Shown here piece after piece: positions 1,370 to 12,196 of a DNA stretch of 12,196 nt (the stretch's first letter is position 1; the number at the start of each line of letters is the position of its first letter). Below the pieces are notes generated by a model. That model searched no databases and had not been told where the DNA came from. It was given only the letters and a program-made list of their open reading frames with translations. Source of the stretch: an uncultured Deferribacteres bacterium (GTDB taxonomy: Bacteria > Zhuqueibacterota > Zhuqueibacteria > Zhuqueibacterales > Geothermadaptataceae); contig CAXHAT010000217.1 of NCBI GenBank assembly GCA_964014485.1, forward strand, positions 1 through 12,196. The letters run 5' to 3'. Both the position numbers and the translations under genes were made by a program.

Positions 1370-1927
1370 ATGCCGCCAATTAAGGAAATATTTGAACGGA
1401 AGCAAAAAGCGGTGAAATTACGCCCGTCTGTCGGACAAGGCACTGCAGTGACCAAAGTCCGTTTTCGCGACGGTTTAACATGCGAAATTGAAGACGGCGA
1501 GTGGAAATTGGTCGCAGATATGGCCTCGAAAATCGGCGGCTCGAACCTCGGCCCAAACCCCGGCGTTCTTGGACGCAGCGCGTTAGGCAGTTGTCTCGCG
1601 ATCACTTACTTGCTCTGGGCCGCAAAACTGGATGTGAAGATTGATCATCTTGAAGTCGAAGTTCAGGCGGACTATGACGCTCGCGGAGAGCTTGGCGTTG
1701 ACGACATTTCTCCAGACTATCGCGAAATTCGATACTCGGTCAACATAGAAAGTCCGGCGCCACAAAAAGACGTGCTTGAAATGATCGAAACGGCGGAAGC
1801 GCATTGCTGCTTTCTTTATGTTTTTCGAGACCCGCATCAAATCAAAAGAAAAATCAATATTGAAAATACAGGAGTCAAGAATGGACGCCAGATTACAGCG
1901 CCGCATTCAGCGGTACGGCTGGGATAA
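1370..1927 (+). CDS. OsmC/Ohr family protein
   Basis: Motif D...GG...GPNPGVLGRSALGSCLA (first Cys), then IDHLEVEVQADYDARG, IRYSVNIES and a second Cys region AEAHCCFL. The 3' end overlaps the next gene by 47 nt. Confidence 0.85.
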   Translation: MPPIKEIFERKQKAVKLRPSVGQGTAVTKVRFRDGLTCEIEDGEWKLVADMASKIGGSNLGPNPGVLGRSALGSCLAITYLLWAAKLDVKIDHLEVEVQADYDARGELGVDDISPDYREIRYSVNIESPAPQKDVLEMIETAEAHCCFLYVFRDPHQIKRKINIENTGVKNGRQITAPHSAVRLG

Positions 1928-2699
1928 AGCCGTCCGGTATTACGAGCAATCGTGGCAATCGCAATTAGAACCGGCGCAGTCGCTCATGCTTGAAATGGCC
2001 GATTTGAACGCAGGAGATCGCGTATTGGATACGGCCTGCGGCACAGGCTTGGTCACGTTTCGCGCCGCGAAAACCGTGGGCGGAACCGGCTTTGTTTTCG
2101 GAACGGATATTTCCGACGGCATGGTGCAAACTGCAACGGAAGCAGCAGAAAATCGCGGCTTCCAGAACGTCGCATTTCAACAAATGGATGCGGAAAAGCT
2201 CAAATGCGATCCTGAAGAATTTGACGCAGCGCTCTGCGCCTTGGGCATGATGTACTACCCCGACCCCGTGCAATCGCTGCGTGAATTGCATCGCACCTTG
2301 AAAAGCGGCGCACAAGCTTCGGCGGCGGTTTGGGGACGACGCAGTTATTGCGGCTGGGCGGAAATTTTCCCGATTGTTGACGCGCGCGTAGAAACCGACG
2401 TTTGCCCGCTGTTTTTCCAATTGGGAGCAGGAAACTCCCTGCGCTTCGCTTTTGAGCAAGCGGGGTTCGGGCAAATCGAACAAGAGAGAATTTCCACAAA
2501 ATTAGTTTACGACTCGGCGGAAGAAGCGAGCATGGCGGTCTTTGCAGGAGGCCCCGTCGCACTGGCTTACGAACGATTCGACGAACAAACGCGCGCGGAA
2601 ACGCACGAAGAATACTTGGATTCCATCGCGCCTTATCGCTCCGGCGACGGTTATGAAGTTCCTGGAGAATTCGTTGTCGTTCGCGGCAGAAAGACATGA
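1881..2699 (+). CDS. Class I SAM-dependent methyltransferase (UbiE-like), 272 aa
   Basis: Motif I VLDTACGTG, acidic GTDIS, MDAE, FDAALC and LRELHRTLKSG. RBS AGGAG at 1870-1874 precedes ATG 1881. Confidence 0.9.
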   Translation: MDARLQRRIQRYGWDKAVRYYEQSWQSQLEPAQSLMLEMADLNAGDRVLDTACGTGLVTFRAAKTVGGTGFVFGTDISDGMVQTATEAAENRGFQNVAFQQMDAEKLKCDPEEFDAALCALGMMYYPDPVQSLRELHRTLKSGAQASAAVWGRRSYCGWAEIFPIVDARVETDVCPLFFQLGAGNSLRFAFEQAGFGQIEQERISTKLVYDSAEEASMAVFAGGPVALAYERFDEQTRAETHEEYLDSIAPYRSGDGYEVPGEFVVVRGRKT

Positions 2700-2751: not shown

Positions 2752-3303
2752 ATGAAAACGACCAAAATTTTGATGATCGCGGGTTTGCTCGCTCTGGCGG
2801 CGAACCTCAGCGCCGAAGACAATCAGCCAATGATCGGCAAGCTAGCGCCTGATTTTGCATTGCAAACGACCAGTGGCGACACTGTATCTTCGCAAGCATT
2901 GCGCGGCAAATTTGTCGTCATCCACTTCGCCGCAAGTTGGTGACCTTTCTGCAATGCGGATGCTCCGCATCTGGAAGCGTTACACAAAGAATATCGCGAC
3001 AAAAACGTTCAGGTTTTGATTATCAATGTAAAAGAAAATTTGCAGACGACACAATCCTGGGCGATAGACCGTCACGGTTTTACCTTTCCCGTTCTTTTGG
3101 ATCTCGACGGTCAGGTTGCGACCAGCTTTGCGCCAGGAAACATTCTGCCGGCACTGCCGAGACACGAGGTGCCGATCGCGTCCAACCTGATCATCGACCC
3201 GCAGGGAAAAATTCAATTTTACACGCTGCTCGACAGCCGCAATTTTGACGCGGAACTGATCGAGCTGACCCAAAAACTCAAACAGTTGAGAGGTGAAAAA
3301 TGA
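2752..3303 (+). CDS. Exported TlpA/peroxiredoxin-like (AhpC/TSA, redoxin) thioredoxin-fold selenoprotein, UxxC motif, 183 aa with Sec64
   Basis: ORFs 2542-2943 and 3016-3303 share one frame separated only by TGA 2941-2943. Read-through gives GKLAPDFAL...LRGKFVVIHFAASW-U-PFCNADAPHLEALHKEYRDKNVQVLIINV...FTFPVLLD...LIIDPQGKI, a complete redoxin domain. N-terminal signal peptide MKTTKILMIAGLLALAANLSA. An alternative in-frame ATG exists at 2713. Confidence 0.88.
2945..2977 (+). promoter_or_regulatory. Bacterial SECIS-like stem-loop
   Basis: Perfect upper stem ATGCGGA(2954-2960)-TGC-TCCGCAT(2964-2970) starts at the 11th nt after the UGA and has a G in the apical loop. Lower stem CTTTC(2945-2949)/GGAAG(2973-2977). 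Confidence 0.75.
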
Positions 3304-3782
3304 TACGTGCTATCACATTTCTCACTTTGATTATAATCTTTGGAGCGAGCAACAGCGCTCTGTTTCAAAAAGAAATCGTAGTGATAAAAACCCAGGAAGT
3401 TCAACGCATAGAAATTGGAAAATCCAGCGAAATCGTTATCAAAAGCGTCGTGAAAAACGGCTACCATATTCAAGCAAATCCGGTCGCCGATGAATTCTTG
3501 ATTCCAACACGCGTCACGATAAAATCTGCGGATGGTTTTCGAATTGGCGAACCGGTTTATCCGGTTGGTAAGCCGTTCTCATTTCAAGGCATGGGAGATA
3601 AATTCTCCGTTTACGGCGGCGAATTTATGGTAAAGCTGCCCATCACGCTTGCTTCATCAGTTGCGCCAAAAGAATATTTACTTGAAGGCGAACTTCATTA
3701 CCAGGCTTGCGATTCCGCCACATGCCTGGCGCCGAGAACGATCCCATTTGAGCTCAAAATACAGGCGGCGGCAGCAAAATGA
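3300..3782 (+). CDS. Stand-alone exported DsbD N-terminal (alpha) domain protein
   Basis: Signal peptide and motifs NGYHIQANP, GEPVYP, SVYGGE and LHYQACDSATCLAP (the nDsbD Cys pair). ATGA overlap with the upstream stop codon. Confidence 0.85.
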   Translation: MIRAITFLTLIIIFGASNSALFQKEIVVIKTQEVQRIEIGKSSEIVIKSVVKNGYHIQANPVADEFLIPTRVTIKSADGFRIGEPVYPVGKPFSFQGMGDKFSVYGGEFMVKLPITLASSVAPKEYLLEGELHYQACDSATCLAPRTIPFELKIQAAAAK

Positions 3783-6969: not shown

Positions 6970-7001
6970 TTTTCATAGCAAAATATTTGCGGAGACATAA
7001 A

Positions 7002-7295
7002 ATGAAATATACGGTTTTGCTGACAAAATCAAACGGCAGCTTTCGTGCAACGGTCGCCGGGCTGCCCGATTGCAATGTAACTGCGCGAACGCGTAGTGAA
7101 GCGCTCAAAACCGTGCGCGAAGCAATTTCCGACTTAGTGCATCACAGTGAAGTCGTCGAAGTCGATGTTCCAGAGAAGCCAAAATCAGGTAATCTAAAGG
7201 AAACGACGCCCTGGGAGTGGGCTGGCGCTTTTAAAAACGATTCGACCTGGGGCGAGCTTTTTGATGAAATCGAAGCTCAGAGAAATTCTGCTTAA
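7002..7295 (+). CDS. HicB-family-like antitoxin, 97 aa
   Basis: MKYTVLL...FRATVAGLPDCNVTARTRSEALKTVREAI matches the HicB partial RNase H fold pattern. It has an acidic/aromatic C-terminal tail and RBS GGAG at 6991-6994. Confidence 0.75.
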   Translation: MKYTVLLTKSNGSFRATVAGLPDCNVTARTRSEALKTVREAISDLVHHSEVVEVDVPEKPKSGNLKETTPWEWAGAFKNDSTWGELFDEIEAQRNSA

Positions 7296-7310: not shown

Positions 7311-7730
7311 ATGTACTTGTGGGATTCAAACATTGTTAGGCATTTCGGAGAAGGGCACAAAAATCTTGTTACTCGTCTCCGAAAAATCCCGTGGATGGAA
7401 ATCGCATTGCCTTCCGTTGTTGTCGCTGAAATATTACGCGGACGATGCGATTATGCTTTGAAAGCGCCTCCAGAGCAACTCCCGCAAGCGCACGCCCTTC
7501 TTCTGGAAACAAAGCTGCTTTTGAACCAATTCAATGTTGTCGTTTTCGATGAAGATTGCCTGAAAGCGCTCGAAAGCTTGAAGCAAAAACACAAAATGCA
7601 TAAACGCTACGCCGACCTTGTTATTGCCGCAATTGCAAAATCCGGAGATCATATTATTGTTACGCGAAATGAAAAGGATTTTAAACGACTGCTTCCAAAA
7701 GCCCAAATTGTGAACTGGATCGACAATTGA
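7311..7730 (+). CDS. vapC: PIN-domain (VapC family) toxin
   Basis: YLWDSN, SVVVAEI, ADLVIAAIA and IVTRNEKDF carry the conserved PIN acidic residues. 139 aa, 15 nt downstream of the antitoxin. Confidence 0.9.
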   Translation: MYLWDSNIVRHFGEGHKNLVTRLRKIPWMEIALPSVVVAEILRGRCDYALKAPPEQLPQAHALLLETKLLLNQFNVVVFDEDCLKALESLKQKHKMHKRYADLVIAAIAKSGDHIIVTRNEKDFKRLLPKAQIVNWIDN

Positions 7731-8516: not shown

Positions 8517-9311
8517 ATGCAGCAATATCTTGATCTTCTGCGCCATGTTCGCGAGAACGGCGTTCAAAAAGGCGACCGAACGGGAACGGGCACGTTAAGC
8601 GTTTTTGGCTATCAAATGCGCTTCAAGCTGGCGGACGGTTTCCCGGCGGTGACGACGAAGAAACTCCACTTGCGCTCCATTATTCACGAACTGCTGTGGT
8701 TTTTGAAGGGCGACACCAACATCAAATATTTGAACGATAACGGCGTGACGATTTGGGACGAATGGGCGGATGAAAACGGCGAGTTGGGTCCAATTTACGG
8801 CTACCAGTGGCGTTCATGGCCAGCGCCGAACGGCGAAAGCATCGACCAAATTTCCTGGCTTATCAATGAAATCAAAAACAACCCCAATTCGCGGCGTTTG
8901 ATCGTTAGCGGGTGGAACGTGGCGGATATTGAAAAAATGGCCTTGCCGCCTTGCCACACGCTTTTTCAGTACTACGTCTCCGAAGGCAAGCTTTCCTGTC
9001 AGCTTTACCAGCGCAGCGCGGACGTTTTTCTCGGCGTGCCTTTTAACATTGCGTCCTACGCGTTGATGACGATGATGATCGCTCAAGCCGCCGATTTGGA
9101 GCCCGGCGATTTTGTCCACACGTTCGGCGATACGCATTTGTATTTAAATCATTTAGAGCAGGCTGACCTGCAACTCTCGCGAACGCCCTACCCCCTGCCC
9201 CGCATGCGCATCAATCCTGAAGTCAAAAATATTTTTGACTTTCGTTTTGAAGATTTTGAGTTGGAAGGCTACAAGTGCCACCCGGCCATCAAAGCTCCGA
9301 TCGCAGTTTAA
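8517..9311 (+). CDS. thyA: Thymidylate synthase
   Basis: 264 aa with [68 protein letters not shown] and C-terminal PIAV. Confidence 0.99.
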
Positions 9312-9370
9312 TTACTGATGTTACGCAACTGGCCAATGATACGACATTTGACAAAAAACTTTGCTCTACG

Positions 9371-9444
9371 CGTCATTCCTCTGGAGACAGGAATCCAGGG
9401 GGCAGTGCACCATTTCCTGGATTCCTGCCTCCGCAGGAATGACG
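9371..9444. repeat. REP-like palindromic doublet (GTCATTCC...GGAATCCAG family)
   Basis: 29-nt arms 9371-9399 and 9416-9444 are inverted repeats with 3 mismatches and a 16-nt spacer. Each arm is itself an ATTCCT...AGGAAT hairpin. Confidence 0.85.
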
Positions 9445-9568
9445 TTGAAAAATGTTTTTGGGGCCAAACAGCCCTATTTCCAATTGCAACATTCGACTTG
9501 GCTGGAAACCAATCTACAACAGGCATTATTGGTGAGCGCGTAACATCAGTTAACAATTGGGGGAAGAA

Positions 9569-10057
9569 ATGCGACTCGCGCTGATTGCTGCAATGGATAG
9601 AAACCGCCTGATCGGCAAGAACAACGATTTGCCCTGGCGCTTGCCGGCGGACTTGCGTTGGTTCAAATCAACGACGATGGGCAAGCCGATTATCATGGGG
9701 CGTAAAACGCATGAATCGATTGGAAAAGCGCTGCCTGGACGGAAAAATATCGTCGTCACCAGAAACTCTGCGTTTGAAGCTGAAGGATGTGAAGTCGTTC
9801 ATTCGCTGAATGACGCTTTGGCCGCTTCAAAAGAGGCTGAAGAAGCTGTTGTTATCGGCGGGGCGGCGCTGTACCAAGAGGCGCTGCCAAAAGCGGAGAG
9901 GCTTTATCTCACTTTTGTCGACGCCGAGCTTGACGGCGACGTCTGGTTTCCTGAAATTAATTTTGACGAGTGGGTCGAAACGAAAAGAGACGCCTTTGCG
10001 CCTGATGAAAAGAATAAATTTCCGTATGCATTTGCTGTGTTCGACAGGAAAAAGTAA
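9569..10057 (+). CDS. folA: Dihydrofolate reductase, 162 aa
   Basis: LIAAM...IGKNNDLPWRLPADLRWFK, IIMGRKTHESIG, LPGRKNIVVT, VIGG, LYLT and GDVWFP. Downstream of thyA. Confidence 0.98.
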   Translation: MRLALIAAMDRNRLIGKNNDLPWRLPADLRWFKSTTMGKPIIMGRKTHESIGKALPGRKNIVVTRNSAFEAEGCEVVHSLNDALAASKEAEEAVVIGGAALYQEALPKAERLYLTFVDAELDGDVWFPEINFDEWVETKRDAFAPDEKNKFPYAFAVFDRKK

Positions 10058-11436: not shown

Positions 11437-12072
11437 ATGGGCGTATCGATACATTACCGCGGGGCGCTGCAGGAGCCGTTGCAGGTTTTCGCACTTTGCG
11501 AAGATTTAGAAGACGTCGCCGCAAGCATGGGGTGGGATTGCACAAAGCTCAACGAAGATTGGACGAGGCCGAATACCGCTCAACTTGAGCATAACGAAAC
11601 AGGCCCCGAAATTACCGGCCACCTCCCCCTTAAAGGCGTTTCACTAAACGTCCATCCGGAATGTGAATCCGTCTCGTTTTTTTTCGATTCTGAAGGCAAA
11701 CTGCAAGACGTGATGACGATGATGATGGTTCGGGACGGCGCAATTGACCCGGAGCACGCCTACGTCCACGTCAAGACCCAATTTGCCTCGCCCGAAACGC
11801 ACATCACGATTGTGAAACTCCTGCGTTACTTGAAGAAAAAGTATATTCCGGATTTGGAAGTTATGGACGAAGGCGAGTATTGGGAAACGGGCGATCAGGA
11901 AAACCTTTATAAAAAAATGCAATTCATCGCCGATAAGATCGACATGGTCGCCAACGCTCTCTCTGAAAGCGATCTCATTGACGCATCGGAAATGACTGAC
12001 GAAGAAGTCGCCGAAAAAATCGAAAAAGTACTCAAGGAAAAGCTCGGGACGGGCAATCAACCGGAAAAATGA
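11437..12072 (+). CDS. Hypothetical protein (acidic, 211 aa)
   Basis: Long ORF starting 3 nt after the previous stop, with protein-like composition and motif-like segments MGVSIHYRG, HPECES, VKTQFA and DEGEYWETGD. No function recognised. Confidence 0.75.
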   Translation: MGVSIHYRGALQEPLQVFALCEDLEDVAASMGWDCTKLNEDWTRPNTAQLEHNETGPEITGHLPLKGVSLNVHPECESVSFFFDSEGKLQDVMTMMMVRDGAIDPEHAYVHVKTQFASPETHITIVKLLRYLKKKYIPDLEVMDEGEYWETGDQENLYKKMQFIADKIDMVANALSESDLIDASEMTDEEVAEKIEKVLKEKLGTGNQPEK

Positions 12073-12090
12073 AAATGGAGTGGCGGGGTG

Positions 12091-12196
12091 ATGGAGTAAT
12101 GGAGTAATGGAGTAATGGAGTAATGGAGTAATGGATTTATGTTCCATCATTCCATCATTCCATCATTCCATCATTCCATCATTCCATCATTCCATC
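12091..12196. repeat. Inverted octamer tandem repeats (ATGGAGTA)x5 then (TTCCATCA)x6+, running to the window end
   Basis: Five exact ATGGAGTA at 12091-12130 plus a partial copy, and six exact TTCCATCA at 12142-12189 plus a partial copy. The two units are imperfect reverse complements. Confidence 0.95.

Follow-up and report, generated by a model that had tools for sequence, protein, structure and literature searches.

A predicted UGA-recoded TlpA/ResA-like selenoprotein gene with a SECIS-like hairpin and an adjoining DsbD-alpha-like gene in an uncultured Deferribacteres bacterium

The contig CAXHAT010000217.1 of an uncultured Deferribacteres bacterium (assembly GCA_964014485.1), analysed over a stretch of 12,196 nucleotides (nt) that is referred to here as the window, carries at positions 2752–3303 of the plus strand a gene that very probably encodes an exported oxidoreductase of the TlpA/ResA/DsbE superfamily, in which residue 64 would be selenocysteine (Sec) inserted by way of SelB and an RNA hairpin, and whose likely partner is a protein resembling the N-terminal (alpha) domain of DsbD (nDsbD). 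Judged from its sequence, the gene appears to be a genuine and unannotated selenoprotein gene of a known class, and it seems modestly new in three respects, which include a selenocysteine insertion sequence (SECIS) that is nearly invariant in its bases, a constant and sometimes fused nDsbD-like partner, and an atypical loop base in the window itself. The observations that carry this reading are the structure of the gene, the alternation of Cys and Sec among its homologues, an RNA constraint specific to the Sec forms, the Sec machinery of the genome, and the partner gene's synteny and fusion with this one.

Gene structure and predicted product

The features of the gene are as follows.

2752–3303, plus strand: predicted TlpA/ResA-like selenoprotein coding sequence, 183 amino acids, TGA stop at 3301–3303 (translation, Pfam, and whole-length alignment with full-length Cys homologues)
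2752–2814, plus strand: probable signal peptide of the Sec (secretion) type, MKTTKILMIAGLLALAANLSA (by inspection; equivalent hydrophobic N-termini in homologues)
2941–2943, plus strand: in-frame UGA, read as Sec64, at the position of the N-terminal nucleophile of CxxC (a Cys column in homologues)
2950–2952, plus strand: resolving Cys67 of U-P-F-C (invariant in alignments)

Translation of 2752–3303 gives one frame of 183 codons and a stop, and its sole internal TGA, which is codon 64, stands in the context HFAASW-U-PFCNADAP, where W-U-P-F-C forms the active-site motif. The initial annotation had placed this single in-frame TGA at the first Cys of a W-C-x-x-C motif, and the alignment bears this out. 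The Pfam matches to AhpC-TSA (1.3e-26, residues 28–156) and Redoxin (5e-22, residues 29–162) both span the TGA, so that the domain does continue intact and in frame to 3303 as had been proposed, and the product also matches Thioredoxin (3.2e-9). The 119 codons past the TGA contain neither a stop nor a frameshift, and all family-invariant residues beyond position 64 are retained. Translation table 11 breaks the frame into two open reading frames (ORFs), 2542–2943 and 3016–3303, so a gene caller would split the gene, in agreement with what had been foreseen for annotation pipelines. The N-terminus consists of a hydrophobic stretch ending A-N-L-S-A, a type conserved among homologues, and by inspection it probably resembles a signal peptide of the secretory type.

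Alternation of cysteine and selenocysteine among homologues

A search of a set of 5.8 billion proteins recovered 425 relatives, of which the 120 listed are 49–65% identical over their full length, and Cys occupies the Sec64 column in all of the 18 relatives that were aligned. Eighty genomic loci were sampled and the motif was located in 79 of them, with TGT at the column in 41, TGC in 37 and TGA in one, the sole TGA homologue (L025) being from a Calditrichia metagenome-assembled genome (MAG) and 63% identical to the window. Metagenomes were scanned with a degenerate pattern demanding TGA, and at least 120 stretches matched; the 80 metagenomic loci that were fetched hold 81 matches, every one of them homologous to the query, and the proteins of these Sec forms are about 45–65% identical. 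The frame remains open for 116–128 codons up to a stop in 59 of the 81, runs on for 263–286 codons in three, and ends at a contig edge in 14. The alternation of Cys and TGA that the initial annotation had suggested looking for was thus recovered: the 79 genomic homologues comprise 78 Cys forms and one TGA form, to which metagenomes add at least 120 with TGA. Because TGA recurs at this column in L025 and in 81 metagenomic matches, its presence at the Cys column is beyond chance.

A quick maximum-likelihood tree of 141 rows (63 Sec and 78 Cys), built with the Sec column masked and with 20 truncated or interrupted rows dropped, needs at least three changes between Sec and Cys. Closest to the window stand two Sec forms, L178 and L025, and next come Cys forms of Thermodesulfobacteriota and Melioribacter MAGs. 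No close orthologue was found in 60 relatives of the source genome, the best match being 42% identical over part of the protein (this count includes the unpublished genomes G016 and G023 and is the only one that rests on them), and the nearest relatives of the gene belong to other lineages.

Downstream of the TGA, comparison of the window with L025 gives a nonsynonymous divergence (dN) of 0.18–0.28 with a saturated synonymous divergence (dS), a pattern that points to purifying selection on the codons past the TGA. Relaxed selection in this half, which the initial annotation had named as grounds for abandoning the selenoprotein, is not seen.

A SECIS-like hairpin specific to the Sec forms

Two RNA features lie at or just past the UGA.

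2954–2970, plus strand: SECIS-like apical hairpin, with 5' arm AUGCGGA (2954–2960), loop UGC (2961–2963) and 3' arm UCCGCAU (2964–2970)
2941–2982, plus strand: possible extended lower stem, 2941–2949 with 2973–2982, which folds so in the window and L025 and is not conserved across the family

The hairpin of 7 bp begins 10 nt past the UGA, and its loop begins at nt 21 counted from the U. Folding of 50 nt in the window gives a minimum free energy of -15.3 kcal/mol (z -2.6), compared with -16.6 kcal/mol for L025 and a mean of -7.4 kcal/mol for 78 Cys homologues, none of which (0/78) is as stable as the window over the equivalent 50 nt. The segment AAUGCGGAGGCUCCGCAU is almost invariant over 67 distinct Sec-form sequences, synonymous third positions included; the codons that follow C-N are GCG in 67/67, GAG in 66/67, GCT in 67/67 and CCG in 67/67, whereas all synonymous codons are in use for the same peptide in 74 Cys homologues. 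The invariant codon positions were either left free by the metagenome pattern or lie outside it. Across the 67 Sec sequences the 7-bp helix is paired at 99.1%, as against 59.5% for the lower stem. The dS between the window and L025 is as low as 0.125 across the hairpin, compared with about 1.1 upstream, and for the rest of the downstream part saturation prevents its calculation. This hairpin, which is specific to the Sec forms and was absent from the initial annotation, adds support to the selenoprotein.

Selenocysteine machinery and other Sec candidates in the genome

The source genome is metagenome-assembled, spans 8.4 Mb in 465 contigs and is 97% complete. A genome search detected selA (488.8 bits) and selD (377 bits), the winged-helix domain specific to SelB (59.1 bits, in a frame of 662 codons), and the tRNA-Sec gene selC (68.8 bits against an Rfam cut-off of 47), which ARAGORN likewise calls as tRNA-SeC with anticodon tca, so that all four of the genes whose search had been recommended, selA, selB, selC and selD, are present. 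The selD gene (C68:143-1069, minus strand, locus L003), itself a candidate selenoprotein gene, bears an in-frame TGA at its catalytic position, in TCG-U-AAK, and 12 nt further on comes a stem, AGCCC/GGGCU, capped by a GGUC loop; since selD carries both the in-frame TGA and a hairpin, UGA recoding is in use in this organism. Taken together, the Cys/Sec alternation, the machinery, the hairpin and the selection downstream support the earlier proposal of a selenoprotein of 183 amino acids with Sec64 and Cys67.

Two further genes of the AhpC-TSA type with one in-frame TGA at a UxxC motif were observed in the genome, at C40:8272-8565 (minus strand; FFGSY-U-GPC, an exported protein) and at C371:2204-2647 (minus strand; FFRGRW-U-PYC). 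In the first, a GGC loop caps a stem of 7 bp, and the geometry is that of the window hairpin. A loop beginning at nt 21 is common to the window hairpin, the selD hairpin and this UxxC redoxin candidate on C40, and the G at the second loop base, retained in the window, is common to all four hairpins examined in the genome.

The downstream DsbD-alpha-like gene

3300–3782, plus strand: DsbD-alpha (nDsbD)-like protein of immunoglobulin-like fold, 160 amino acids, predicted to be exported (DsbD_N match, nDsbD fold, synteny)

The ATG of this gene overlaps the TGA stop of the selenoprotein gene (ATGA), an arrangement by which the two genes appear to be translationally coupled. Its product matches Pfam DsbD_N (1.4e-9; 38.5 bits against a gathering cut-off of 25), starts with a hydrophobic helix, and contains the Cys pair C137 (3708–3710) and C142 (3723–3725) within YQACDSATCLAP, in the pattern Y-Q-A-C-x4-C-x-x-P; both Cys residues are invariant in 31 sequences. 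A profile search of Protein Data Bank (PDB) sequences with the partner alignment gave no match at E <= 0.01, and a fold search was therefore needed. The AlphaFold2 model (pLDDT 89.7) is a beta-sandwich whose top Foldseek matches are the nDsbD structures 3pfu, 1l6p, 1jpe, 1vrs and 1z5y (TMt 0.66–0.71), with sequence identities of 16–17%. By its Pfam match, its fold and its Cys pair, the product belongs to the family of DsbD N-terminal (alpha) domains, with a predicted redox function.

Of the 79 genomic loci, 74 have room for a downstream neighbour, and in 71 of the 79 the next gene downstream on the same strand is DsbD_N-like, an adjacency that extends over several phyla. Among the metagenomic Sec loci with room of 500 nt or more, 31 of 44 show it as well. 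Fused forms, in which Pfam finds AhpC-TSA/Redoxin and DsbD_N in one frame, are present at L122:1190-2440 (minus strand) and L160:1-894 (plus strand). A truncated metagenomic gene, L132, has the Sec-TlpA-like and DsbD_N-like parts in one frame as well. A DsbD-like membrane protein and CcdA-like proteins are encoded elsewhere in the genome. These arrangements suggest that the Sec-TlpA-like protein and its partner would form a periplasmic selenosulfide/disulfide relay.

Proposed mechanism

What we infer about the insertion of Sec, the export of the protein, the way electrons flow and the substrate that they finally reach may be put as follows. SelB loaded with Sec-tRNA(Sec) would be recruited by the hairpin at 2954–2970, and the UGA at 2941–2943 would then be decoded as Sec64 and not as a stop. 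After export, Sec64 would attack a disulfide of the partner to give a selenenylsulfide, which Cys67 would resolve. As its partner, the DsbD-alpha-like protein encoded at 3300–3782, with its C-x4-C pair, is the most likely, and the two proteins would constitute a periplasmic electron relay comparable to that of nDsbD with CcmG or with the gamma domain of DsbD, presumably fed by a membrane protein of the DsbD/CcdA kind whose gene lies elsewhere in the genome.

Points against the proposed reading and alternative explanations

Several observations weigh against the reading of a Sec-inserting gene with a dedicated partner. At the RNA level, compensatory changes in the hairpin were sought in the 67 Sec sequences, and changes on both sides were found in 0 of the 7 pairs; because compensatory base changes are lacking, the support from the RNA comes from the invariance of synonymous sites and not from covariation. 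RNAalifold, applied to the 67 Sec segments, returns a different and weak consensus (-7.99 kcal/mol), likewise with no compensatory pairs. This alternative consensus was rejected in favour of the 7-bp hairpin, since the hairpin accounts for the invariant wobble bases U27 and G30 and the consensus does not. When all of the window was searched against Rfam to E = 1, neither a SECIS nor any other relevant family was found. The loop of the window is UGC, compared with GGC in the other 66 of the 67 distinct Sec sequences, and the U at the first position stems from an Asp codon (GAT) in the window in place of the Glu codon (GAG) of the others; an atypical first loop base could weaken the SECIS of the window. 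At the protein level, the curated NCBIfam models all score below their cut-offs, with the ResA subfamily doing best (80.6 against 170 bits), and the evidence for the partner relationship consists of synteny and fusion. Among the runs listed as holding the locus there is no RNA run. The three read sets that cover the TGA come from one study, at a depth of 2.3–4.4, and may include the source sample. Finally, five of the 81 metagenomic TGA matches stop early, 44–108 codons past the U.

The early-stopping homologues are L107, L117, L136, L144 and L177, and one of the three long run-on frames, L105, has an apparent mid-gene frameshift; all six may be assembly errors or decaying copies.

The alternative that survives best, although we consider it rather unlikely, accepts a genuine selenoprotein and does without the DsbD-alpha-like partnership: the protein would be a reductase of cytochrome c maturation of the ResA/CcmG type or a lone thiol peroxidase, and the adjacency of the two genes would reflect co-regulation only. 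In its favour, the closest solved relatives by sequence, as found with the Cys homologue P0002 as query, are ResA structures (4nmu, 6.5e-22; 1st9, 4.6e-16), followed by other exported thioredoxin-family proteins such as TlpA (1jfu, 7.4e-6); the AhpC-TSA domain match and an OsmC-like gene in the cluster also count for it. However, a Pfam scan of the window found no cytochrome c maturation genes, and the T/S-x-x-C signature of peroxiredoxins is absent, as the segment reads F59-A60-A61-S62-W63-U64 with Ala61 three residues before Sec64. The adjacency with a DsbD_N-like gene across several phyla and the two fusions also speak for a partnership, as conserved adjacency combined with fusion usually marks proteins that are directly coupled in function.

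It is improbable that the gene is a pseudogene, in which a TGC/TGT to TGA nonsense mutation would have struck a Cys-type TlpA-like gene so that only a fragment of 63 residues was made. The nearest Cys forms are one base away from TGA, and the divergent loop of the window and the early-stopping metagenomic forms would fit such decay. A nonsense mutation does not account, however, for the recurrence of TGA in L025 and in 81 metagenomic matches, 59 of which keep 116–128 codons in frame, nor for the retention of a Sec-specific hairpin, the low downstream dN over 119 uninterrupted codons, the family-invariant residues kept past position 64, or the intact coupled gene downstream.

The two remaining alternatives have next to no probability. 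An error of sequencing or assembly at 2941–2943, replacing TGC/TGT by TGA, might be thought of in a MAG of 465 contigs with so shallow a depth at the site, but the separately assembled contigs of three runs cover the position and agree on TGA with no differences, so that the error which the initial annotation had listed as a way for its proposal to fail is not seen; an error would also leave unexplained why the window shares the Sec-form-specific codons GCG, GCT and CCG with 66 other TGA forms. The frame 2752–3303 would be open too if the organism had an alternative genetic code that assigned TGA to Trp or Gly, with no part for Sec, but TGA terminates this very gene as well as the upstream methyltransferase gene (2697–2699), most Pfam matches in the genome are free of internal stops (17 of 20 for AhpC-TSA), the column aligns with Cys and not with Trp or Gly, and the Sec machinery is complete.

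Protein class and comparison with known systems

The product appears, from its sequence, to be a member of the TlpA/ResA/DsbE superfamily of the W-C-x-x-C type. The NCBIfam scores against their cut-offs are 80.6/170 bits for ResA (NF002854), 35.5/230 for TlpA (NF047696) and 33.6/123 for DsbE (TIGR00385), and because these cut-offs are unmet the protein is placed in the superfamily with no named equivalog. The PrxU model scores 23.2 bits against a cut-off of 270, and the curated selenoprotein redoxin models (WAxxUGC, TUGYCR and PrxU) represent different families.

Bacillus ResA, Bradyrhizobium TlpA and E. coli CcmG (DsbE) share with the predicted product an exported thioredoxin fold with W-C-x-x-C, and they differ from it in that the window protein would have Sec in place of the nucleophilic Cys and stands outside a cytochrome c maturation context. 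The likeness to the DsbD relay of E. coli lies in the partner, as its model matches the nDsbD chains of 1vrs (nDsbD-gamma) and 1z5y (nDsbD-CcmG), it has a conserved Cys pair near its C-terminus, and it adjoins or is fused to a thioredoxin-fold CxxC/UxxC protein. In contrast to E. coli DsbD, the alpha-like domain is stand-alone or fused to a TlpA-like domain and not to a membrane domain, and the Cys pair is spaced C-x4-C, compared with the C103-x5-C109 of E. coli nDsbD.

The class of bacterial selenoproteins to which the gene belongs has been known for about twenty years. Traits of the Sec-type subfamily around the window protein are the signature W-U-P-F-C-N-A-E-A-P, the near-invariant AAUGCGGAGGCUCCGCAU hairpin and the constant DsbD_N-like partner.

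By the tables of two papers (PMC13188914, PMC2398784), predicted selenoproteins of the UxxC Prx-like and TlpA-like class are abundant and have long been known. A 2026 review (PMC13188914) tabulates as high-confidence predicted families both a UxxC 'Prx-like thiol:disulfide oxidoreductase' (PF00578; UxxC/UxxU) and a TlpA-like UxxC family (cd02966) of 'thiol-disulfide isomerase-like' proteins, and for 'Prx-like 1' the GOS survey counts 225 sequences with Sec and 2,740 homologues with Cys (PMC2398784). The Prx-like families resemble the window protein in their AhpC-TSA domain, a UxxC motif with Sec first, a large excess of Cys homologues and their prediction from metagenomes, a likeness drawn from table descriptions and not from prototype sequences; the cd02966 family, likened through its table description alone, resembles it in a TlpA-like thioredoxin fold with UxxC. 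The three subfamily traits named above go unmentioned in the tables of both sources (PMC13188914, PMC2398784), and the word 'DsbD' is absent from PMC2398784 and appears a single time, in another context, in PMC13188914. Among the titles and beginnings of abstracts returned by a literature search, no pair of a TlpA-like protein with a stand-alone DsbD-alpha protein was found, which is weak evidence of absence.

Implications

Since gene callers split the gene, the protein and the Sec-type subfamily are likely missing from databases or truncated in them, and the combination of unreached NCBIfam cut-offs with split calls would lead to an undercount of how far sediment and marine bacteria use selenium. 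Within the family, Cys and Sec can be compared cleanly in one natural scaffold, and with a strongly conserved, searchable SECIS and a candidate redox partner, the advantage of Sec in thiol exchange at the envelope becomes testable. The established picture of bacterial selenoproteomes is unchanged by the finding.

A broader reading, which joins these elements and which we hold as speculative and on the whole doubtful, is that the pair represents a distinct and widespread two-component periplasmic relay, sometimes fused, that has a thioredoxin-fold member switched between Cys and Sec at least three times, serves a sulfur or metalloid task of the envelope and not cytochrome c maturation, and uses an 18-nt SECIS that is near base-identical across phyla. 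The envelope task is proposed because genes for SAM-methyltransferase, rhodanese, DsrE, YeeE and OsmC recur as neighbours, which is a hint. If this were so, the UGC-loop variant of the window would be a natural test of the loop base that SelB needs.

Neighbourhood and other features of the window

Two genes precede the pair in the window.

1370–1927, plus strand: OsmC-like gene, Cys form (OsmC 1.6e-15), shared with the cluster L026 of a Melioribacter MAG
1818–2699, plus strand: predicted S-adenosylmethionine (SAM)-dependent methyltransferase, class I, Methyltransf_31, a recurrent though not universal upstream neighbour of the pair

Genes for a membrane protein, an OsmC-like protein and a SAM methyltransferase come before the pair both in the window and in L026, which is of the Cys form. 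A Methyltransf_31 protein of about 260 amino acids is the upstream neighbour in 10 of the 39 genomic loci sampled (L029, L030, L032, L033, L037, L038, L043, L052, L073 and L086), and also in L026. Other neighbours that recur around the pair include rhodanese/ArsR, DsrE, YeeE-type, DUF4395, TehB-like and OsmC genes, and they hint at a possible role in sulfur or metalloid chemistry. The OsmC-like gene scores 67.8 bits with an OsmC-related (seleno)protein model (below the cut-off of 95); it was considered as a selenoprotein, and this was rejected for want of an in-frame TGA. The stop of the methyltransferase gene (TGA, 2697–2699) was likewise considered as a 'UXPK-star' read-through and rejected, as the next 12 codons end in TAA and the motif is absent. 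The OsmC-like and methyltransferase ORFs as listed overlap by 110 nt, and the true start of the methyltransferase is probably further downstream because homology with L026 begins at residue 22 and the Pfam domain at about 41–64.

Elsewhere in the window, a PIN-domain protein gene (7311–7730, plus strand, 8.3e-11) is preceded by a small ORF (6987–7295, plus strand) with no family match, and the two may form a toxin-antitoxin pair of the VapBC type. Long hairpin-forming stretches at 9364–9452 and 12067–12196, with sub-threshold matches to Rfam models of plant and animal microRNAs (best 36.7 bits against a gathering threshold of 100), are probably inverted repeats or terminators. The window also carries an ordinary thyA gene (8517–9311, plus strand, 2.9e-127) and an ordinary folA gene (9557–10057, plus strand, 3.3e-64).

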